From the NCBI RefSeq assembly GCF_000009045.1, contig NC_000964.3, positions 2,760,001-2,792,000 on the forward strand: a stretch of 32,000 bases of DNA. The letters run 5' to 3'. How positions within the stretch are numbered: the first letter of the stretch is position 1; the number at the start of each line of letters is the position of its first letter. The notes below the pieces were generated by a model that made no database searches, had not been told where the DNA came from, and saw only the letters and a program-made list of their open reading frames with translations. This DNA is from Bacillus subtilis subsp. subtilis str. 168. GTDB lineage: Bacteria > Bacillota > Bacilli > Bacillales > Bacillaceae. The position numbers were made by a program, and so were the translations under genes. This document shows positions 2,399 to 20,893 of this stretch, one piece after another.

Positions 2399-2835
2399 AA
2401 TTCATCCTCTCTTGTATCTTGATTGGCTGTTTTTACTTTTTCTAAATGTTCACTGCACACTTGAAAGCTTTGCTGACTCATTGCTTTTAAGTTGTTCAGC
2501 AAATCTTTGAGAGCCAGATGTTCTCTCAGGCTTAATACCTCCAGCAGAATCGGCAGGTTTACGCCGGCAGCCATATCCATTCTTTGATCCTCAGCAATAA
2601 AGGAAGCTGCCGCGTTATATGGCGTCCCTCCAAAAATATCGACTAAAAAAAGCACTTCATGTTCTTCCGGGATATCCTTGAGCGCCTGATGATATTTTTC
2701 TTGCAGCGTTTGTATTCCTTCCCCTTTGAAAAACGGCACTGCAATCAGGTTATTTTCTTCACCGAATATCATCCCTGAAGACTCTTTTAATGCTATGGGA
2801 AAATCTCCATGACCGCTGATAATAACTGAAATCAT
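2395..2835 (-). CDS. levD: PTS EIIA component LevD (mannose family)
   Basis: The track ORF is 157 aa. SD AAAGGAGCAA is 6 nt before the internal ATG at 2835, giving 146 aa that start MISVIISGHGDF (EIIA-Man phospho-His9 motif). The longer ORF start has no SD. Confidence 0.93.
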   Translation of the reverse strand: MISVIISGHGDFPIALKESSGMIFGEENNLIAVPFFKGEGIQTLQEKYHQALKDIPEEHEVLFLVDIFGGTPYNAAASFIAEDQRMDMAAGVNLPILLEVLSLREHLALKDLLNNLKAMSQQSFQVCSEHLEKVKTANQDTREDEL

Positions 2836-2874
2836 ATCTATTGCTCCTTTCCTGTTTTGTACATCCATATATAA

Positions 2875-2890
2875 TGCAAGGATCGTGCCA
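2875..2890 (-). promoter_or_regulatory. Sigma-54 (SigL) -24/-12 promoter of levDEFG-sacC
   Basis: The reverse strand reads TGGCACGATCCTTGCA, which matches the consensus TGGCAC-N5-TTGCA exactly. It lies about 40 nt upstream of the levD start and downstream of the gene for a sigma-54 enhancer-binding protein. Confidence 0.9.
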
Positions 2891-2899
2891 ACACAGTTG

Positions 2900-2914
2900 T
2901 GTTAAGCGTTTTCA
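2900..2914 (-). promoter_or_regulatory. Catabolite-responsive element (cre, CcpA site) of the lev operon
   Basis: The reverse strand reads TGAAAACGCTTAACA, which fits cre consensus TGWAANCGNTNWCA. It sits between the upstream palindrome and the -24 element, where I recall the lev cre was mapped. Confidence 0.75.
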
Positions 2915-2960
2915 TTGTTATTTCAGCCAATAGCAATTTGTTGTTGAAACACTTAAAACG

Positions 2961-3006
2961 AAAAAAATAAACCTGTATTAAAATGGTGTTCCATTTAATA
3001 CAGGTT
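2961..3006 (-). terminator. levR intrinsic terminator; the inverted repeat probably doubles as the LevR upstream activating sequence
   Basis: The reverse strand reads AACCTGTATTAAA-(loop)-TTTAATACAGGTT followed by TATTTTTTT, 19 nt after the levR stop. The centre of the palindrome (~2988) is about 120-125 bp upstream of the expected sigma-54 start site. That is where the LevR UAS palindrome was mapped, as I recall. Confidence 0.75.
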
Positions 3007-3024
3007 CATATGAAAAAACTGTTT

Positions 3025-5832
3025 TTAAAACAGCTGGCCATGCACTTCTTCAGCAAATATGGCGGCTATAAATAATTTTTCATCATCACTTATGCGAAGT
3101 CCGAGCTTTTCTTCATAAGGGGCTAATGTTCGCTCTGTCACGTACACCATTTCCTTCAGCTGATCATTGATCTCTTCTTCCTCTGAGAAAGCGATCGGAT
3201 TCTGCTTAATTACCCTTTCAAAGGCGAAAGCCGTGTGCATAATGACTTTGATCAAAACCGCATTATTGAAAATGACCCCCAGCTCATCCTGAACGGTTTG
3301 CAGCCACTCCAATAACATGTCGATCACATGGTGGGGATTCAAGAAGACAAGGTATTTTTTCAGGCTATCCTCGCAAAGCTCCCTGACAATAATATTTGCT
3401 TCGTTCAATCCATTGCTCAAGGAGATGCTTCCTTTTGTAATCGCCTGTTGAATCAGCTTCTCTCCCTCCCCTTCAATTAACACTTCTAAAGATACATGCG
3501 GAGCATTGATTTTAGGGTCTTTCGTTCCGACTGTCGCAAGGATTTCATACTCTTTTTCGATTTCTTTTATGCTGTTGGCCAGCTTAATCGATGATACGGT
3601 CAATATGTGAATGGGGGTATCGGAGGCCTTGTTTACGATCGTGGTTAGAATGTCTTCCAGCTTTTTGGCCGTTCCGCTACCCGTCGTGCAGATGGATACC
3701 AATGCCTTCTTTTTGCCGGATGCCGCTGGCTGACGCTCCCACAACTCGATAAAATCCTTCGTGACCGATTGATAGATCGCATGCAAATTTAAATTCAAAT
3801 AGTTGACCTTTCTGACAGCATCCAGCACCATTGAAGTCGTAACATTGCTGATCGTTTTAATAGAAATGCCTGTCTTTTCCTCCAGCCTGCTTTCCAGCAT
3901 TGCAAGCGACCCCATATCTACCAGCATTAAAACACCTTCACCTTCATCAACCTGTTTCATTTTTTCTGCTACGCATTCAAGAATGTCCGAAGGTGAAACA
4001 GTAAGCGGCATGTCAACTGCTGCAATCGGCGTACTCCCTAGCAGTTCTGTCGCGACTTCAACCATTGAACTCGCCGTGCTGTTTCCATGAGCTGCCACGA
4101 TAATACCGACTCTTTTGTTCTCCTTTAACGATTTGATGGAATGAATTAACATCGTTAAGTAGATGACTTCTATTTCAGGAATAGCCACTTTAAAATATTC
4201 CTGAATTTTATCTTTAAAAATCATCGCCACCCGATATTCTTTCACATGGGTATCACGAATTTCATCTGTCTCCTGTGTATTCAAAACATCAATTTGCTTT
4301 CCTCGCTTTAAAAATGCGTCAATATGCATACTCAAGAAATAAATAAACTTACGGTCAAATGTGCAATCCAGCTCATGTTCAGCTATTTCTTTTAACTGTT
4401 TTGTCATTTGAATCACATCGTCTTCAACGAATGTCAGCAGGTTGTCTTTTTGAAAAGCTTGATGATGAAAAAAACTTCTGACATGCAAATGGACATCAGT
4501 CAAGATGTACTGGTTAATATCCTTTTTGGATAAACCTTCTTTCATAAGCGTTTTCACTTTTTCCTCAATCAAATGATATAAGTTAAATGAGAGGTCTTCG
4601 TCAATTTTTGTTGTTTCATCTTCTACAATCGGAGAGATAATCGTTGTAATATTGACATATTCAGAAATGGCTTTGCTTCTTTGCATGTTTTTGCTGCTGG
4701 ACATCCATTCTTGCTTGATTTCATCAGGCAGATCGCGAACAGTCAGTTCAATAACTTCATTTCTGTCAAGGTTATGCAAAAATCCGTGTGCGCAAACTAA
4801 CTGAACATTTGATTTCAGCTGTCCGACATTCCCAAATTTCGCAGAGTGAATAAGCGCATTATAGACATCGATATGCACACTCAGATTCTTCTTAATTCGC
4901 TCTGCTTCTTTCCCTAATAAAAACGTCGTCAGATCCACTCTTTCATTAAGCGATCGTTCTTCAAGCGAAGGAATATGAATGGTCATTGGGATTCTTCGCA
5001 AAAACGTTTTCAATAGTGCAGAACTCGGATTTTCTGTAGTCGCACAAATAAACAATACGTTCGATGTTCGTTTATGTTCAGATTCTCCAAGCCTGTTATA
5101 AGAACCGCTGTCAATAAAATAAAACAGCATTTCTTGTCCCTCGGGAGGGAGACGGTGGATTTCATCCATAAAAAGAATGCCCCCATTGGCCTGTTCGACT
5201 AAACCCGCCTTATCCTCGGCAGCACCTGTAAATGAACCTTTTTTGTGTCCGAATAATTGAGAAAGCAATAATTGAGGGTTGTTGTAGTAGTCTGCACAGT
5301 TAAATGTAATAAATGGTGCGCCGGCCTTCAATATGTCAGAGTAAATGGCAAACTGGTAAATTCGGTTCGCAAAAAGGGATTTACCGGAACCAGTCGGCCC
5401 TAGGAGGAGCATATGCAGACCGTTCGGCGGATAAAAGACAGCTGCTTTTGCCTGGGAGATCGCTTTCTTCAAACTCCCTTTTGCCCCTATCATAAGCTCT
5501 AGGGGATTCGTGGAAATGTGTTGATGATTTTGCTTTGAATTTCCGGAAAACGCCTGAAGGTCTTTCACTTCCATCATCTCTGTATCCCATTTCTTGTTGA
5601 ATAATTTTTCTGCTATCTCGACTGGGATGTATCTTACAGGAAATGTTTTAATTTTGATGACCTTTTTGGACCGGACGAGATTGTTCAATTCAAAGCTGAC
5701 ATTGGACCGCTCCATTTTCAGCTGCTCGGCAATCTCCTTTGCTGAATTCCCTTGTATTTTTAAAAGATGATCTAAGGTTGAATCATGAAAATTATGCTTG
5801 AGCTGATGGTATATTTTATCTATTCTTCTCAC
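3025..5832 (-). CDS. levR: Sigma-54-dependent, PRD-containing transcriptional activator LevR
   Basis: N-terminal HTH. AAA+ sigma-54 interaction module (Walker A GPTGSGKS, GAFTGA-type loop GSFTGA). These are followed by PRD and EIIA/EIIB-like regulatory domains. The track ORF starts at ATG 5841, but that ATG overlaps the SD (AAAGGATG). The GTG at 5832 is 8 nt from AAAGGA and gives 935 aa, the length I recall for LevR. Confidence 0.93.
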   Translation of the reverse strand: MRRIDKIYHQLKHNFHDSTLDHLLKIQGNSAKEIAEQLKMERSNVSFELNNLVRSKKVIKIKTFPVRYIPVEIAEKLFNKKWDTEMMEVKDLQAFSGNSKQNHQHISTNPLELMIGAKGSLKKAISQAKAAVFYPPNGLHMLLLGPTGSGKSLFANRIYQFAIYSDILKAGAPFITFNCADYYNNPQLLLSQLFGHKKGSFTGAAEDKAGLVEQANGGILFMDEIHRLPPEGQEMLFYFIDSGSYNRLGESEHKRTSNVLFICATTENPSSALLKTFLRRIPMTIHIPSLEERSLNERVDLTTFLLGKEAERIKKNLSVHIDVYNALIHSAKFGNVGQLKSNVQLVCAHGFLHNLDRNEVIELTVRDLPDEIKQEWMSSSKNMQRSKAISEYVNITTIISPIVEDETTKIDEDLSFNLYHLIEEKVKTLMKEGLSKKDINQYILTDVHLHVRSFFHHQAFQKDNLLTFVEDDVIQMTKQLKEIAEHELDCTFDRKFIYFLSMHIDAFLKRGKQIDVLNTQETDEIRDTHVKEYRVAMIFKDKIQEYFKVAIPEIEVIYLTMLIHSIKSLKENKRVGIIVAAHGNSTASSMVEVATELLGSTPIAAVDMPLTVSPSDILECVAEKMKQVDEGEGVLMLVDMGSLAMLESRLEEKTGISIKTISNVTTSMVLDAVRKVNYLNLNLHAIYQSVTKDFIELWERQPAASGKKKALVSICTTGSGTAKKLEDILTTIVNKASDTPIHILTVSSIKLANSIKEIEKEYEILATVGTKDPKINAPHVSLEVLIEGEGEKLIQQAITKGSISLSNGLNEANIIVRELCEDSLKKYLVFLNPHHVIDMLLEWLQTVQDELGVIFNNAVLIKVIMHTAFAFERVIKQNPIAFSEEEEINDQLKEMVYVTERTLAPYEEKLGLRISDDEKLFIAAIFAEEVHGQLF

Positions 5833-13779: not shown

Positions 13780-13890
13780 AAGGCCGGCGCGATACTCCCT
13801 ATAACATCCTTTTCAGTAGATTTCATTATCGTGCCGGTTTTCTCATATGCAAAGCAATCCCGCCAATCAGATTGGCGGGATTTTATATTT
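13780..13890 (+). ncRNA. rnaC: Small regulatory RNA RnaC/S1022 (approximate ends)
   Basis: The SigD promoter is immediately upstream. There is no SD-led ORF. An internal stem pairs CCGGCGCGATA (13784-13794) with TATCGTGCCGG (13827-13837). The strong terminator at 13856-13890 ends the transcript. I recall that RnaC/S1022, a SigD-dependent repressor of abrB mRNA, maps between yrhK and cypB. The 5' end given here is inferred, not observed. Confidence 0.7.
13856..13890. terminator. Intrinsic terminator for RnaC and sigV-operon read-through; abuts the cypB stop
   Basis: AATCCCGCCAATC-a-GATTGGCGGGATT followed by TTTATATTTT on the plus strand. The T-run overlaps the cypB stop codon (13890-13892), so it may also act on the minus strand, although the U-tract is poor in that direction. 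Confidence 0.85.
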
Positions 13891-16800
13891 TACATTCCTG
13901 TCCAAACGTCTTTCACATAACGTCTTTGATCTTGCAGCTTTTGCAGCCATACAGCTGATTCTTCCTGACTTGCTGCTTTTTCAGCTTCATATGCCAATCG
14001 CAAAGTTCTCTCTACATCAGGAGCCATTTGCGATCCATCACCGCATACGTAAATATGAGCCCCTTTTTCAATGAGTGTCATCAATTTCTGCGTATCTTGC
14101 TTGAGCAAGTGCTGGACATATCCTTTTGGTTCGTTTTCGACGCGCGAGTAGCATCGGCGGATTGTGACCAAACCGTCCTGTTCCGCTTGATCCAGCTCTT
14201 CTCTGTAAAGGTCGTCATGGTCCGGGCGGCGGCAGCCGAAGTATAAAAGTGCTTCACCAAGGGTGCTTCCTTCCTTCTTCAAAACCGATCTTGCCTGAAT
14301 AAAGCCTCTGAATGGCGCAATTCCTGTGCCCGGCCCGACCATAATCATAGGCGTTTCAGGATCATTCGGCATCTGAAATCCGGACTGCGGCGTACGAATG
14401 AAGCAAGCTGCTGCATCACCTGTATTCAATTCTGCTAAATAATTAGAGGCGACACCCCGGTATTCACCTCGGCCGCTCCATGCTGAGGCTTTCACAACTC
14501 CTACCGTCATGCTCACGATATTTGCATGAACTTTCGGTGAGCTTGAAATGGAATAGTATCTCGGTTTTAGTGATGGCAAAAGTGCTAAAAACCGTTCAAA
14601 CGGCATTTCGCAAGCAGGATAATCCTCTAAAAAATCAAGCATGGTAAGACGTTTTGCAAGTACCTGCTCTTTGTAAATGCCATCATCTGAAACGAGCTGT
14701 TCCAGCTCTTTTTGATGCGGCGGACAAACTGTATAAGAGGCCAGCTCCCGAAGCTGAAGCCTTGATGCCGGTTCCTGCAGCTCTACATAGGACGACAATA
14801 AATCCACTACTTTGATTGGCCGATCCATCGGCAGATGAGCCATATGAGCGCTTCCGCTTACTTTTATCACATGATTGGACTGCAAACCGAATCGGCTGAG
14901 AACCCGCTGAACAAGCTCCCTGCTGTTCTTTGGCAGGATTCCGATATGATCGCCTTCTTTATATGTTTTACCAGCCGGAATTTCCAATTCAATATGGCGG
15001 GTTGAACGCGTGCTGGCAGCTGTCTGGAGTTCTCGATTCTCTAACACAATCCCTTCAAACGCGCCATATGCTTTAGCAACCGGCGTTTCCGTCGCTTCAC
15101 TGAGAAAAGTAATCGATAATGAAGGCCTGTCTTCTTTCTGGGCTATTTCGTTAATATCAAATGCGTCCATCGTTTCCTTCCAGAAGCGGTTTTCCCAAGA
15201 CTCGCGGTGGCTTTCAAAATCATCGGCGGCGTCACCTTCCCCAATCGCTGTTAAACGCGATGCCCCCTTTGCTTTCATCATGTCATCAATCAGGCGGGGA
15301 ATCCGCTGATACGTGCTGGCCCAGCTCCGGTTTCCGCAGCCGAATACCGCATAGGAAACACCTTTCAATTGGCCTTCCTCAAGCTCTTTCAGCCACTCTA
15401 CAAATCCGGCAGCATTATCAGGCGGCGCCCCATTATAAGAAGCCGTTACAATGACGACTGCCCCTTCTTCAGGGAGCTTGCCGATATAATCATCAAGCGG
15501 AGCCGTTTCAGCTGTAAAGCCCATCTGGCGGCCTTGAGCAGCCAGTTCACCGGCTATTCCCTCAGCTGTCCCAAGATTTGAACCAAAAAGAACAAGTAAA
15601 GGTGTGCCGTGTTTAGGTTTGGTTTCTTTTGGCTTTGTTTCTGCTTTGATGTCTGCCTGTTCTTTTCTCTGTACATTGATTGCCGCTGTTTTTCGCGGTT
15701 TCACAGTAATTTTAAAATCATCCGGCTTGATCGTTAATGCTTCTTTGATTTTTAGTTCGTAGCCAGTATGGTTTATCAATTCAAAATGCTTTAATACAAG
15801 ACCGAGAACCATTGTCGCTTCTTGAAGAGCAAACTGCATGCCAATACAAGCGCGCTGTCCGTTTCCAAACGGCTTATACGCATGGTGAGGGATACTTGAA
15901 GGATCCTCAAACCGTTCCGGACGGAAATCTTCCGCATCCGGTCCCCAAGCGTTTTGATCCCGGTGCAGTTTTGGAATTAAAACAGTGACTGGCTGCCCTT
16001 TGCTGATCGGATATTCCCCGCCTAGAACAGTATCCTCCTTCGCATATAGAGAAAAAGCCGGAGCTGTTGGATACAGTCTGAGGGTTTCATTTAAAACCAT
16101 CCGAATGTATTTGAGCTGCTGGATTTGTTTATATTCAGGCGTGTCATCCGTTAACACGCGATCCGCTTCCTCCTGAGCTTTTTTCAGTTTTTCCGGATGT
16201 GTAAGCAGACAATAAATCGCAAAGGATAGCAACCCGCTTGTTGTCTCATGTCCAGCAATTAAAAATGTGATGATTTGGTATCGAATGTTTTCGTCATCCA
16301 GCGTTTCACCCGTTACTGGATCTTTGGCATAAAGCATGAGAGACAAGAGATCCTTAATGTTTTCATCCGGATTCGCCTTTCGCTCCGCTATCATTCTATC
16401 AACCAGGGAGTTCATGACTTCTATATCCTTTTGGAACTGCAGCTTCGTTTTCACCATCATTTTATCTTGCAGGCCCAGTCTTTTCGATTGATTCATCGCC
16501 TCTTTTAAGGCACGGAGCATACTGGTGATAAACGGATGCTGTGAATCACGGTAAAAGCTGTTGAATCGATAGTTAAACCCGCATAACCCAATCGTATCAA
16601 GCGTCAGACGTGTCATATCGTCCGCTACATCAATTTCTTCATTAGGGTTTAACCGGCTCCACTTTTGAATCAGCTGGGTTGCGATATCCAGCATCATAGA
16701 ATGATAGCCTTTCATCGCTTTTTGACTAAAACTCGGCAGCAAAATGCGGTGGGCTTTTTGCCAGTTCGGTTCGTGCGTCCAGCTTGTAAATAAGCCATCT

Positions 16801-17054
16801 CCCCCGAACTCACGCACCTTTTGCAAGCCTTTGCCAAGGTTCTTGTCAAAGCGTTTTTCATCACACACTTCAGCCACAAGATTGTGGCCGGACACAAAAA
16901 CACTGGATACTCCCGGAAAATCAAAACGGAAAATCGGTCCCAATTCATCAGCTATCCGCCATAAGGATTGAGAAAGCTGTTCTTTTTCCAGATGCGGAAG
17001 ATTTTTTAAAGGTCCGTATGTTTTGGGCTGAGGTATTGCGCTTGCCTGTTTCAT
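13890..17054 (-). CDS. cypB: Self-sufficient cytochrome P450-NADPH P450 reductase fusion, CYP102A3 (YrhJ)
   Basis: The N-terminal P450 domain has the heme-thiolate loop [14 protein letters not shown] and the I-helix AGHETTS. A flavodoxin-like FMN domain follows, then an FAD/NADPH domain ([20 protein letters not shown]). SD GGGAG is 6 nt before the ATG at 17054, giving 1054 aa ([16 protein letters not shown]). The ATG at 17060 directly abuts the SD. Confidence 0.95.
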
Positions 17055-17069
17055 TAACATCTCCCTTTC

Positions 17070-17700: not shown

Positions 17701-17876
17701 TTTTGTTCACAAAGAATGTCTGCCCTGTCTGATATCACCTCTTTGTTCTTTCTTCTGTTATAAGTTTATATGAAAAAAACTTTTTTTAATATAAAGTATA
17801 TGCAAAAAATAAAAAATTAAGAAAATATACCCAAATCCTAATACGAGGATCTTGGATATATTTCCCGAGAAATTTT

Positions 17877-18419
17877 TTATTTAACAGCCACAATACATAG
17901 ACAGGAAGCACGCCTGATAACAGAAAGATCCCTGAAATGCTGGTCTTTCAGCAGTTGAATATACGTTTTCTCTTTTTCACCGGTATTTGTGTCAATACTG
18001 ATATAAAACCGGCCGTCAATTTGAAGCACCCTGTAAATTTCTCTTAATGCAAGCCTAATATCGGTGCAGCTTTGAACCGTATGTAAAGAAAAGACTTTAT
18101 TAAAGGTACGGTCATCAAAGGGAATGTCCTCTGGATAGCCATGAAAAACCTCCCCGTTCCCCATGTTCTTTCGATTCGCACGTGATATCTGTCTTACCTT
18201 TCGTTTTGAAGGATCAATGCTTTTTAGGCTACCCTTTTTTAGTTTCTTGGTTATGCTTTTAAAGACAGTGCCGTTTCCAATTCCAATTTCTAAAATTCTG
18301 TCATTTTCTTGTATATCTATAGAGTCAATCATCATATGCTCAATTGTTTTGGTTAGCTTATATTTCCGAGAAAATAATTTCCAAAAATCCGATCGTTTAT
18401 AGAGTCTATTTTCTAGCAT
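17877..18419 (-). CDS. yrhH: Putative SAM-dependent methyltransferase YrhH
   Basis: Class I methyltransferase motif I (ILEIGIGNGTV). The GTG start of the track ORF lies inside the SD (AGGTG). The ATG at 18419 is 6 nt downstream and gives 180 aa (MLENRLYKRSDF). Confidence 0.85.
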   Translation of the reverse strand: MLENRLYKRSDFWKLFSRKYKLTKTIEHMMIDSIDIQENDRILEIGIGNGTVFKSITKKLKKGSLKSIDPSKRKVRQISRANRKNMGNGEVFHGYPEDIPFDDRTFNKVFSLHTVQSCTDIRLALREIYRVLQIDGRFYISIDTNTGEKEKTYIQLLKDQHFRDLSVIRRASCLCIVAVK

Positions 18420-18567
18420 TTTAAACACCTGCTTTTGGTTTCCTATGTTTATTTATTATCTTAAAAAAATAAACATCATCTTCATTTCTAAAAGTGAAGG
18501 AAGGTACCAACTAGACGGCAATGTATTGAAAAATGTTTCAATAGAACTAAACTTTTTCATTTTTTTC

Positions 18568-18601
18568 CGAAAAAAAAGCAGAAAACATAATGTTTTCTGC
18601 C
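18568..18601 (-). terminator. Intrinsic terminator of the yrzI micro-ORF operon
   Basis: The reverse strand reads GCAGAAAAC-atta-t-GTTTTCTGC followed by TTTTTTTT. It starts 7 nt after the stop of the 52-codon ORF. Confidence 0.85.
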
Positions 18602-18607
18602 CTCTTT

Positions 18608-18766
18608 CTAATGCCAATGATAAGGGAATACATACAGCCTTTGCTGCTGCATTGCCATCAGCCTCTGCTGTCGGAATGGATTTCCATAACCATGTTTGAA
18701 GGAATGCGGCATGGACGCATAACCATGGCCAATCGACGGCAGTCTTTTTTGATAATCGTTCATCAT
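18608..18766 (-). CDS. Unannotated 52-codon ORF, last cistron of the yrzI operon (probably the S1024 region)
   Basis: My hand translation of the reverse strand gives MMNDYQKRLPSIGHGYASMPHSFKHGYGNPFRQQRLMAMQQQRLYVFPYHWH*. SD AGGTGA is 4 nt before the first ATG and 7 nt before the second. A terminator follows immediately. The ORF is below the 60 aa cut-off of the supplied track. Confidence 0.55.
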   Translation of the reverse strand: MMNDYQKRLPSIGHGYASMPHSFKHGYGNPFRQQRLMAMQQQRLYVFPYHWH

Positions 18767-18835
18767 GCCATCACCTGCCTCACAATAACGTTGATTTACT
18801 ATATGCAGGCGCGCATTTTCTTGACAGCTATTTCG

Positions 18836-18889
18836 CTAAACTTGGTCCTTCTCCATTGTATAATGCATCAATAGTTCCATTCTAAGCAT
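18836..18889 (-). CDS. 17-codon micro-ORF (S1025 as I recall; reported Rae1 cleavage target)
   Basis: Reverse-strand translation gives MLRMELLMHYTMEKDQV*. SD AAGGGGGA is 7 nt upstream. It starts 33 nt after the yrzI stop. Its length of 17 aa matches the S1025 peptide in the Rae1/YacP study as I recall it. Confidence 0.6.
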   Translation of the reverse strand: MLRMELLMHYTMEKDQV

Positions 18890-18922
18890 ATGCCATTCCC
18901 CCTTCAGTTTTTTTCGTTGCTT

Positions 18923-19072
18923 TTAGCGCCAGTTTGTTAAATAAAGATGCTTTAACTGAGACTCTTTCATTTCATCATAAATTTGTTCAATCTGCTGTTC
19001 TCGTTCGAATTCTTCCAGGCTTTTAAACCGTTTTTTAATCGTTAACGTTAAAAAGAATAGGTTAATCGTCAT
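18923..19072 (-). CDS. yrzI: Small protein YrzI (49 aa)
   Basis: Reverse-strand translation gives MTINLFFLTLTIKKRFKSLEEFEREQQIEQIYDEMKESQLKHLYLTNWR*. SD AAAGGGGGTGA is 5 nt upstream. Gene order (between yrhH and yrhG) and the 49 aa length fit yrzI. Confidence 0.75.
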   Translation of the reverse strand: MTINLFFLTLTIKKRFKSLEEFEREQQIEQIYDEMKESQLKHLYLTNWR

Positions 19073-19219
19073 ATCGCTCACCCCCTTTCAAAGTCCGCAT
19101 CAAGCGAAATAACCCGCGGCACAACCCTTCTGCCGCGGGCAAATAAAAACCGCAGACAAAAGAAGACACCAATGCCTCTACTGCCTGCGGGGAGTTGCGT
19201 ATGTCCGACTATTCCGAAT

Positions 19220-19336
19220 TTAATGCGTGCGATAAGCATCGGTTAAGGAAGGACACGAACTCTTCCACAGGCTGAATAAACCATGAACTTTTACATGTGT
19301 ATCACGTACAGGTTGACGTCGTTGTCTCATTGTCAT
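19220..19336 (-). CDS. Unannotated 38-codon ORF, first cistron of the yrzI operon (probably the S1026 region)
   Basis: Reverse-strand translation gives MTMRQRRQPVRDTHVKVHGLFSLWKSSCPSLTDAYRTH*. A consensus SD, AAAGGAGG, is 10 nt upstream. It starts about 30 nt downstream of the predicted transcription start. Confidence 0.5.
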   Translation of the reverse strand: MTMRQRRQPVRDTHVKVHGLFSLWKSSCPSLTDAYRTH

Positions 19337-19373
19337 TTTGGTTCAGCCTCCTTTGCTTTTTTCTTACTTTGTA

Positions 19374-19402
19374 AGTATATCCACCAAATTCCATTTTGTA
19401 AA
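19374..19402 (-). promoter_or_regulatory. SigA-type promoter of the yrzI micro-ORF operon
   Basis: The reverse strand reads TTTACA (19402-19397), a 17 nt spacer, then TATACT (19379-19374). Confidence 0.6.
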
Positions 19403-19461
19403 CATCTTTTTCTAAAAATGGACGGAAATTGTGCAAATCATCGAATGGATTTGCCCGTTGG

Positions 19462-20262
19462 TCATGACACCTGCTTCATTTCTTTTCTGGAGCGGTCTTT
19501 CTTATGATATGCAATAAAATAAATGAGACCGACAAATACAGCTCCGCCGATGACATTACCGATAAAAGCCGGAATGATGTTTCCGATGAACTGCCCCCAC
19601 GTGAATGAGCCTGCAAAAATGGCAGCAGGAATCACAAACATGTTGGCGACAACGTGCTGAAATCCGATAGCCACAAAAGCCATGATTGGGAACCAGATGC
19701 CAAGGATTTTTCCTGCTGCGTCTTGGGCGCCGAAAGAAAGCCACACTGCAAGACATACAAGCCAGTTACAGCCGATGGCGGAAATGAGAACCTTGCCAAA
19801 GCTCATATCAAGCTTTCCTTGGGCAACGGCAATCGTTTTTTCTAAATAAGGACCTGTTTCAGTCAATCCAACCAAATGCCCGAAAAAGTAAGCAACAAAC
19901 AATGCGCCGATTAAGTTCATAATTGTGACGATTCCCCAGTTAATCGCTAACTCTTTTACTGATATTTTTCTCGAAAATAACGCCATCGCAACTGACATCA
20001 TATTGCCTGTGATCAGTTCAGCGCCAGCGAGAACGACAAGGATCAGGCCGACTGGAAATACTGCTGCACCAATCAAACTGGACAGGCTCCCCCATTCTTT
20101 CGGAAGATCGCCAATTACCCTGATATCAAGCAAATACCCAAGCGCGATAAATGCACCGCCTAAAAACCCCAGCACAAGCAGTGACGGCAGCGGGAGCTTT
20201 ATTTTTTTCATCCCTGCTTCAATTGCTGCTTCCGCTATTTCATCCGGTTTTCGAAAAGCCAT
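19462..20262 (-). CDS. yrhG: Formate/nitrite transporter (FNT) family channel YrhG
   Basis: 266 aa ORF with six hydrophobic segments and FocA/NirC-like motifs (GAELITGNM, GCNWLVCLAVW, FVIPAA). SD GGAGGCG is 8 nt upstream. Confidence 0.93.
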   Translation of the reverse strand: MAFRKPDEIAEAAIEAGMKKIKLPLPSLLVLGFLGGAFIALGYLLDIRVIGDLPKEWGSLSSLIGAAVFPVGLILVVLAGAELITGNMMSVAMALFSRKISVKELAINWGIVTIMNLIGALFVAYFFGHLVGLTETGPYLEKTIAVAQGKLDMSFGKVLISAIGCNWLVCLAVWLSFGAQDAAGKILGIWFPIMAFVAIGFQHVVANMFVIPAAIFAGSFTWGQFIGNIIPAFIGNVIGGAVFVGLIYFIAYHKKDRSRKEMKQVS

Positions 20263-20313
20263 AATAAAACGCCTCCATTACTTCTTCTTTTCTCACAGTT
20301 ATGCAAGAAAGGC

Positions 20314-20524: not shown

Positions 20525-20893
20525 CTAGCTTTGCAGAGCTTCTTTTTGCTCATCTATTTTTCGGTCAAAAACAAATACAGATACAGCGATGTTTTCCTCA
20601 ATTTTAATATCAGAAAACAAATGGACTAGCTTAGCTCCCATAAGTTCCTCCATTCCTTCCGGTGTTTGTTTGGAATAAAGGTCTTGAATTAGGCTTGTCC
20701 GGGCCGCATGTACCATCTCTCTTCCTTCAGGCGTGCGGGCAATAAACTGCTCGCTTGCACTCAGATTTCCGTATAGTGTTGAAACTGCCATGTTTTCTAC
20801 AAATACAGTATGAATTCTCTCAGGCCCTTTTCCGAACAATTCTTTGCGAAGTTTTCGAATAATATCATTGAATTCATGAATTTTTTTAGACAT
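20525..20893 (-). CDS. yrhF: Small cytosolic protein of unknown function YrhF (DUF2294-like, from memory)
   Basis: 122 aa hydrophilic ORF (MSKKIHEFNDIIRKLRKELFGKGPERIHT...). SD GGAAGGGG is upstream. It is divergent from yrhE. Confidence 0.85.
   Translation of the reverse strand: MSKKIHEFNDIIRKLRKELFGKGPERIHTVFVENMAVSTLYGNLSASEQFIARTPEGREMVHAARTSLIQDLYSKQTPEGMEELMGAKLVHLFSDIKIEENIAVSVFVFDRKIDEQKEALQS

Follow-up and report, generated by a model that had tools for sequence, protein, structure and literature searches.

The yrzI operon of Bacillus subtilis encodes the four short proteins S1027, YrzI, S1025 and S1024 of 38, 49, 17 and 52 amino acids (aa), respectively (Gilet et al., 2025, PMC12067863), and is the system on which the model of Rae1 was founded; this ribosome-associated endonuclease cleaves mRNA behind ribosomes that have stalled. 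A 5′ end of its RNA was mapped to the promoter P3, which is repressed by AbrB (PMC12067863). Three transcripts are Rae1-sensitive, namely P1-T4 (2.4 kb), which carries yrhF-yrhG together with the small open reading frames (ORFs), P3-T4 (0.8 kb) and the processed R-T4 (0.5 kb); the short P3-T2 and P3-T3 RNAs are abundant and not Rae1-sensitive, and P3-T2 was seen on Northern blots (PMC12067863). Here, a feature region on the minus strand (positions 18568-19402) of a 32,000-nucleotide (nt) stretch of DNA, referred to as the window, is compared with this operon. The minus strand of positions 18300-19700 was read and its ORFs were listed. The locus is almost certainly the B. subtilis yrzI (spyTA) operon, or that of a near-identical strain, and is read with the published toxin-antitoxin/Rae1 scheme.

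Overexpression of YrzI lowered plating by 3-4 logs and co-expression of S1025 abolished this toxicity also when Rae1 was missing, which is why YrzI was named SpyT and S1025 SpyA (PMC12067863). A first-pass annotation of the window, made from the sequence, had described the functions of all four peptides as unknown, which is outdated for this toxin and its antitoxin. R-T4 is made by cleavage at the site E1 (-125/-126) and trimming by RNase J1 up to the ribosome on the yrzI Shine-Dalgarno sequence (SD), and it is removed by Rae1 or by 3′ exonucleases (PMC12067863). With the ribosome stalled at the UAG of S1025, Rae1 cleaves at a point 12 nt upstream of this codon; UAG outperforms UAA or UGA, and a Rae1 target ORF needs at least 16 codons (PMC12407103). 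The translation-dependent cleavage within the 17-codon S1025, which the first-pass annotation had put forward, is thus supported (PMC12067863, PMC12407103), with the position of Rae1 refined to the tail of the ribosome that has stalled on the stop codon and not the A site (PMC12407103). According to a 2026 preprint, Rae1 acts on collided ribosomes and thereby feeds trans-translation.

The other known Rae1 target of B. subtilis, bmrBXCD (PMC10351889, PMC12407103), likewise has an AbrB-repressed promoter and a 5′ leader ORF with a terminator, and its 26-codon bmrX is, like S1025, a downstream short ORF whose nascent peptide stalls the ribosome at the stop codon, upon which Rae1 cuts 12 nt upstream. 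However, the cargo of bmrBXCD is an ATP-binding cassette (ABC) exporter and that of yrzI a toxin-antitoxin pair, and bmrB attenuation is known to answer to antibiotics, while for S1027 with T2/T3 there is no known signal. bmrX and S1025 have unrelated arrest peptides (EKIEGG and MEKDQV, respectively), and the stop codon is UGA in bmrX and UAG in S1025. As in type II and type V toxin-antitoxin modules, toxin and proteinaceous antidote of spyTA are adjacent in one operon; an RNase (Rae1) is also able to remove the toxin mRNA, a comparison drawn by the original authors. Unlike in those modules, both partners are micro-peptides (49 and 17 aa), which makes spyTA an unusual, already published pair, and the target of the toxin is unknown. 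SpyT toxicity was seen on overexpression only, and deletion of rae1 had no major phenotype in rich medium. Like TnaC, MsrDL and MifM, regulatory arrest peptides with a stall at or near a stop codon, S1025 halts the ribosome through its short nascent chain inside the exit tunnel, and the stall is read out as a regulatory event, but this read-out is Rae1 cleavage behind the ribosome and the peptide doubles as antitoxin. As in STAB-SD/hbs-type 5′ stabilizers, a ribosome on a very strong SD blocks RNase J1 on yrzI, the 5′ end lying 8 nt upstream of the G-run; the difference is that the stabilizer of yrzI is the toxin gene's own, genuine SD.

In the window, the four ORFs of 38, 49, 17 and 52 codons lie between yrhG and yrhH in the published order. 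Unless stated otherwise, all features of the locus are on the minus strand. The promoter P3 (19374..19402) was located by a consensus scan and consists of a -35 box TTTACA (19402-19397), a 17-nt spacer and a -10 box TATACT (19379-19374), with 10 of 12 positions matching the consensus and both boxes unvarying in the 21 B. subtilis-group genomes compared. ORF 1 is S1027 (19220..19336; 38 codons), with the SD AAAGGAGG at 19354-19347, 10 nt ahead of the ATG at 19336. ORF 2, yrzI or spyT (18923..19072; 49 codons), has the SD GAAAGGGGGTGA at 19089-19078, 5 nt from the ATG at 19072, and ORF 3, S1025 or spyA (18836..18889; 17 codons, MLRMELLMHYTMEKDQV, stop codon TAG), has the SD GAAGGGGGA at 18905-18897, 7 nt from the ATG at 18889. 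ORF 4, S1024 (18608..18766; 52 codons), follows the SD AGGTGA (18776-18771) at a distance of 4 nt from its ATG at 18766. When ORFs of 15-90 codons with SD and ATG were counted per strand, four were found on the minus strand of the feature region and none on the plus strand; 2000 shuffles of the region gave a mean of 0.41 and none of them reached four. The density of such ORFs is 4.8 per kb in the region versus 0.28-0.53 per kb across the whole window.

Three intrinsic terminators could be placed. Between S1027 and yrzI, the hairpin of T2 (19145..19190; -22.8 kcal/mol, z = -4.0) is followed by U5, and that of T3 (19105..19140; -21.8 kcal/mol, z = -3.95) likewise carries a U-tract. The T3 hairpin is kept in all clades, with arms that differ from clade to clade. 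T4 (18570..18600) consists of a 10-bp GC/AU hairpin (18600-18578) followed by U8, folds with -19.5 kcal/mol (z = -6.7) and forms the 3′ end of all yrzI transcripts. Each of the elements named in the first-pass annotation, a SigA-type promoter, four SD-bearing ORFs and a terminator, is therefore present on the minus strand. T2, T3 and the long yrhF-yrhG co-transcript had been missing from it, and its dedicated operon is not a simple four-cistron unit, as T2/T3 follow S1027 and give the short P3 RNAs, and the 2.4-kb co-transcript carries the ORFs in addition.

The identification of the locus as yrzI, proposed already in the first-pass annotation, is borne out by ORF lengths, the SpyA sequence, fragment sizes and synteny. 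The translation of the 17-codon ORF agrees at every residue with SpyA as published, with M, LRM at residues 2-4, ELLMHYTMEKDQV at residues 5-17 and UAG (PMC12407103). The published E1-Rae1 fragment is 347 nt long, and the distance from 19197 to 18851 in the window is exactly 347 nt; this is consistent with a Rae1 cleavage position at 18850..18851, where codon 13 of S1025 borders on codon 14, 12 nt before the TAG, as transferred from PMC12067863 and PMC12407103. When the 521 nt of published R-T4 are counted from 19093, the end falls within the U-tract of T4, and the window coordinates agree with the published P3-T4 (798 nt) within ~3 nt. The yrzI SD forms 11 of 12 pairs with the 16S ribosomal RNA 3′ end, the same as published. 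YrzI scored 71.4 bits against PF09501 (cut-off 23) and 78.2 bits against TIGR02413 (cut-off 47.05), and the best genome match by YrzI was B. stercoris, with 100% identity. The gene order yrhF, yrhG, yrzI, 52-aa ORF, methyltransferase, TetR regulator and P450-reductase fusion is common to many genomes that have the identical 52-aa protein.

Compared with the B. subtilis yrzI (spyTA) operon, all tested features agree (ORFs, SpyA, yrzI SD, P3/T2/T3/T4, fragments and flanks), there is no material difference, and nothing was found that contradicts the identification. Three points weigh against it or against the scheme that comes with it: the distance from R to the Rae1 site is 243 nt here and 241 nt in the published work, the published functional claims come from overexpression and RNA work of a single laboratory, and "four peptides" may be too many functional products, as S1027 fails the coding test described below. 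Calling the operon hidden, as had been done in the first-pass annotation, is not justified: names for the four ORFs have been in the literature since 2017, and gene calls exist for the exact 52-aa protein in over 1000 assembly blocks and, in some, for the ORF of 38 aa. The earliest description of the locus is reportedly that of Leroy et al. in 2017. The locus is thus already known and well studied, and finding it adds nothing new to the field in itself.

Read onto the window, the published scheme would run as follows. Transcription would be initiated at AbrB-repressed P3 and also, ahead of yrhF-yrhG, at P1; many of the transcripts from P3 would end at the tandem T2/T3 just past S1027, and read-through to T4 would carry yrzI, S1025 and S1024. 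An endonucleolytic cut at E1 upstream of yrzI would be followed by 5′ to 3′ trimming by RNase J1, which would halt where the yrzI SD, unusually strong, keeps a ribosome bound, and so yield a very stable 0.5-kb mRNA. SpyT would be toxic when over-produced and be neutralized by the 17-residue SpyA, whose nascent peptide (ELLMHYTMEKDQV) would stall the ribosome on the S1025 UAG; Rae1 would then cut 12 nt upstream, after which exonucleases would degrade the toxin-antitoxin message. Based on the published experiments, S1025 combines the roles of antitoxin and translation-dependent decay switch, because SpyA neutralizes the toxin and translation of S1025 triggers the Rae1 cut. The steps of this mechanism come from experiments in the literature; locus identity, conservation and the coding and non-coding signatures are established in this analysis.

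For the coding tests, an alignment of YrzI homologs was used to collect 47 genome loci. In 20 further genomes of the B. subtilis group, which cover the subtilis, atrophaeus, amyloliquefaciens and licheniformis clades, the four ORFs are colinear and each of them is open, and codon tests were performed on 21 sequences (19 for S1027). For YrzI, the ratio of nonsynonymous to synonymous substitutions (dN/dS) is 0.11, and 43 of 48 third codon positions vary compared to 37 of 96 first and second positions (p = 1.6e-9). Similar values were obtained for S1025 (dN/dS 0.10; 13/16 versus 10/32; p = 0.0013) and S1024 (dN/dS 0.15; 49/50 versus 42/100; p = 4.7e-13). For S1027, dN/dS is 0.91 and the variable columns are spread evenly (20/32 versus 40/64, p = 0.59; 21, 19 and 20 of 32 at codon positions 1, 2 and 3). 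Because of these dN/dS and codon-position tests, it is concluded that YrzI, S1025 and S1024 are protein-coding by evolutionary criteria and that S1027 is not. The synonymous-site bias that the first-pass annotation had proposed as a check was thus found for three of the four ORFs.

In S1025, ELLxHYTxEKDQV and the TAG stop codon are unvarying in 21/21 sequences and EKDQV is retained through synonymous changes. Such protein-level conservation, together with the low dN/dS, is what is looked for in an arrest peptide, and with 17 codons and a codon 13/14 boundary 12 nt before the TAG the ORF also follows the rule for Rae1 targets. S1024 has a core, IGHGYxSxPHSFKHGYGNP, that is unvarying across the B. 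subtilis-group sequences. No Pfam or NCBIfam family was found for S1024; a match to EFG_C (Pfam; E = 0.079, 13.4 bits versus a cut-off of 27.9) was dismissed as noise. An exhaustive profile search of 1.84 billion representative proteins with S1024 gave five matches, all of which except one low-complexity match belong to the same narrow family, and this family, for which no link to a known one emerged, does not extend past the B. subtilis group. S1024 is a genuine small protein restricted to this lineage and without an assigned function.

The amino-acid sequence of S1027 is not under selection. Its N-terminal half is freely variable and contains indels, but the 3′ part holds a near-invariant block of 36 nt (19241..19276, TTCAGCCTGTGGAAGAGTTCGTGTCCTTCCTTAACC) that was recognized in the alignments. 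In B. changyiensis and strain WMMC1349 (loci L010 and L011), a 1-nt indel shifts the frame and the ORF stops within the block, and yet the nucleotides of the block are kept. Because there is no coding selection and the nucleotides are conserved even out of frame, S1027 is probably a translated leader RNA and not a conserved peptide gene. SD and ATG of S1027 are conserved in 21/21 genomes, the ORF is open throughout with 29-41 codons, its stop codon lies 28-35 nt ahead of the T2 arm in 19/21 genomes, and ribosome-profiling support for its translation is cited in PMC12067863.

What this leader does may be approached from its layout, in which SD-preceded S1027 lies directly upstream of T2/T3 in the 5′ leader, as in a leader-ORF attenuator. 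It is conceivable, at clearly less than an even chance, that S1027 with T2/T3 forms a cis-acting attenuator, controlled by ribosomes or by structure, that gates P3 transcription into spyT-spyA. The absence of coding selection on conserved nucleotides favors this, as does the coexistence of P3-T2, P3-T3 and read-through P3-T4 RNAs in vivo (PMC12067863) and the fact that bmrBXCD also begins with a leader-ORF attenuator. In a more specific form, held with the same reserve, the ORF would matter only through being translated and the block would alternate between the flank of the S1027 SD and the 5′ arm of T2. Both pairings are predicted. In helix A, identified by RNAalifold, UCAGCCU of the block (19275-19269) pairs with AGGCUGA (19349-19343), which overlaps the S1027 SD, in 21/21 sequences, with a single pair varying between CG (11), UG (6) and UA (4). 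In the nascent RNA, pairing of the T2 5′ arm with the block was predicted with a probability (P) of 0.9-1.0 in the subtilis and amyloliquefaciens clades. In addition, a predicted hairpin inside the block (GGAAG:CUUCC) is kept in 21/21 sequences, and its loop gathers most substitutions.

Against an attenuator, P for the pairing of block and T2 5′ arm drops to 0.55-0.6 in the licheniformis clade and to 0.13-0.19 in B. changyiensis, the pairing is absent in a distant clade described below, and it shows no covariation across the aligned genomes. Covariation in the leader as a whole is thin, with two pairs that probably reflect one or two evolutionary events. In the leader structure 98.6% of cells are paired, compared to 32-55% in slid controls, but the structure was derived from the same alignment on which it was tested. 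No regulatory signal is known, an Rfam search of positions 17800-20300 at E ≤ 1 gave no covariance-model match, and the block could instead be a binding site for a protein or a small RNA (sRNA), or an RNase site. The predicted pairings of the block and T2 thus fit an antiterminator/terminator switch without proving it.

Loci beyond the B. subtilis group were also compared (27 loci, L020-L047). All 27 have a short ORF after the YrzI homolog, located 26-40 nt past its stop codon in 25/27 loci, and these ORFs end in x-(K/R/L)-D-S-x-stop, a motif that may also be summarized as x-K/R/L-D-S/Q-x-stop. In genomes of Fredinandcohnia, Litchfieldia and the 'Bacillus timonensis' type, the YrzI homolog is found in the same kind of cluster. 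This starts with a GTTTACA -35 box, a TATAAT -10 box and a 27-codon leader ORF with SD and ATG that has no coding signature (dN/dS 1.23). It continues with two tandem hairpin terminators, YrzI (dN/dS 0.15) and an ORF of 17-22 codons ending in ...VEKDST-stop, and closes with two hydrophobic micro-ORFs under purifying selection. The latter encode 19 aa (MLSVHVLIFTILFSKKNKQ; dN/dS 0.22) and 26-28 aa (MFMIVMGIVITSVIAIIIGTEVSVEL; dN/dS 0.11) and lie at ~3250-3570 in the locus coordinates of L021-L041, L044 and L046, where homologs of S1024 and S1027 are absent. Judged by sequence, a SpyA-like putative arrest motif and the arrangement of leader, double terminator and YrzI extend well beyond the B. 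subtilis group and the species shown in the literature. RNAalifold paired the SD of the distant leader (GGUCGARUA) with UAUUCGACC, a conserved block located in the ORF's 3′ part. With no relation in sequence between the two clades' leaders, their shared layout favors a cis-acting role. This layout, in which an SD-bearing leader ORF without peptide selection, its SD paired to a block, is followed by two terminators, yrzI with a very strong SD and a SpyA-like putative arrest ORF, counts in favor of the attenuator proposed above and also resembles that of the bmrB leader.

A dedicated operon in which all four cistrons, including S1027, are functional micro-proteins is considered unlikely. All four ORFs do have SD and ATG, those of S1027 being invariant with an ORF that is open in every B. 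subtilis-group genome, ribosome profiling is reported to support translation (PMC12067863), and the S1027 segment FSLWKSSCPSLT looks conserved in 19/21 genomes. However, the codon positions of S1027 are equally variable and its dN/dS is 0.91; the analogous leader ORF of the distant clade is also without coding signature (dN/dS 1.23); the block is kept in B. changyiensis and WMMC1349 though it is read in another frame; substitutions in the block concentrate in the loop of the predicted hairpin; and T2 and T3 part S1027 from the remaining three ORFs. That the ORFs are chance frames in non-coding intergenic RNA has practically no probability left, since short as they are, and unannotated for three of them in many records, the four SD- and ATG-bearing ORFs were matched by none of the 2000 shuffles, three of them are under strong purifying selection across 21 genomes, experiments in the literature show S1025 translation and YrzI activity, and the codon-position tests refute this reading.

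Next to S1027 as a probable leader RNA, a second structure concerns the SD of yrzI. A C-rich stretch, CGCAACUCCCC (19189..19199), lies just 5′ of T2, holds the published E1 site (19197/19198; PMC12067863) and may be what the yrzI SD pairs with. In the RNAalifold helix of the two, 96.8% of cells are paired, and the SD is predicted to be paired with P ≥ 0.88 in 21/21 species, its partner being this C-rich stretch in every case. The combinations of SD and partner are GGGGG with CUCCCC and GGAGG with CCUCC or CCUUC. When mononucleotide shuffles of the upstream sequence were used as a control, the result was not significant, as mean P was still ~0.8 and 15-31% of the shuffles equaled the observed pairing. 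As a weak hypothesis, the C-rich stretch may mask the yrzI SD for as long as cleavage at E1 and trimming by RNase J1 have not removed it, and processing would then activate translation of the toxin.

Relative to the published work, the increments are codon-level evidence for S1024 as a genuine small protein, the behavior of S1027 as a translated leader RNA and not a peptide gene, and the reach beyond the B. subtilis group of an arrangement in which a leader ORF and a double terminator precede YrzI and a SpyA-like ORF. A further step, which we offer tentatively and would not bet on, is that S1027 forms the translated core of an attenuator, a leader with conserved structure by which P3 transcription into spyT-spyA is gated via T2/T3. 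If true, the leader reading would add a transcriptional gate to an already multi-layered toxin control and strengthen the parallel with bmrBXCD, which would be of moderate interest for specialists in Bacillus RNA biology.

Some observations on the terminators and the surroundings of the locus are added. In the amyloliquefaciens clade, the U-tract of T2 is degenerate and T3 is intact. A pairing of the 3′ arms of T2 and T3 in the RNAalifold output was judged to be an artifact of palindromic CCGCGG arms and misalignment of clades, because each hairpin alone folds strongly. The consensus scan had assigned the hairpin of T4 to the plus strand, where the tail is the weak T-rich CCTCTTTCTA; the U8 is that of the minus strand. 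Upstream of the micro-ORFs, yrhG encodes a formate/nitrite transporter (19462-20262, minus strand; TIGR00790, 272 bits), and upstream of yrhG lies yrhF with an MpsC domain (20525-20893, minus strand). In GCA_010094155.1 (L048, 3204-3694), the TetR-family gene past the methyltransferase is called as two ORFs of 81 and 75 aa and not as one of 194 aa, which is likely a frameshift or a pseudogene. Elsewhere in the window, Rfam RF02450 (Bacillus sRNA ncr1175) gave a full-length match of 124.9 bits at 13781-13886 on the plus strand, which adjoins the end of the large P450-reductase ORF (13890-17060, minus strand).

Further observations were made in the distant loci. In L021-L041, the SpyA-like ORF has a low synonymous divergence (pS 0.22 versus ~0.5 in its neighbors), and its 3′ end, GUGGAGAAGGAUUCCAC (~3215-3240), contains a possible hairpin that ends at the last sense codon, right before the stop codon; this suggests a constraint at the RNA level besides the peptide motif. 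In the same loci, a perfect, clade-conserved complement of ~11 nt exists between the 5′ untranslated region (GUAGGAAAAAA) and a stretch past the second terminator (UUUUUUCCUAC), and if the two paired, the leader ORF would be enclosed together with both terminators. Between the two leader terminators, only L032 and L033 have an insertion of ~140 nt, which contains hairpins and may be a repeat or a small mobile element. Finally, tandem YrzI paralogs precede a single SpyA-like ORF in L044 (two, 2823-3138) and L046 (three, 2643-3141), reminiscent of the seven tandem YrzI copies reported for B. cereus (PMC12067863).

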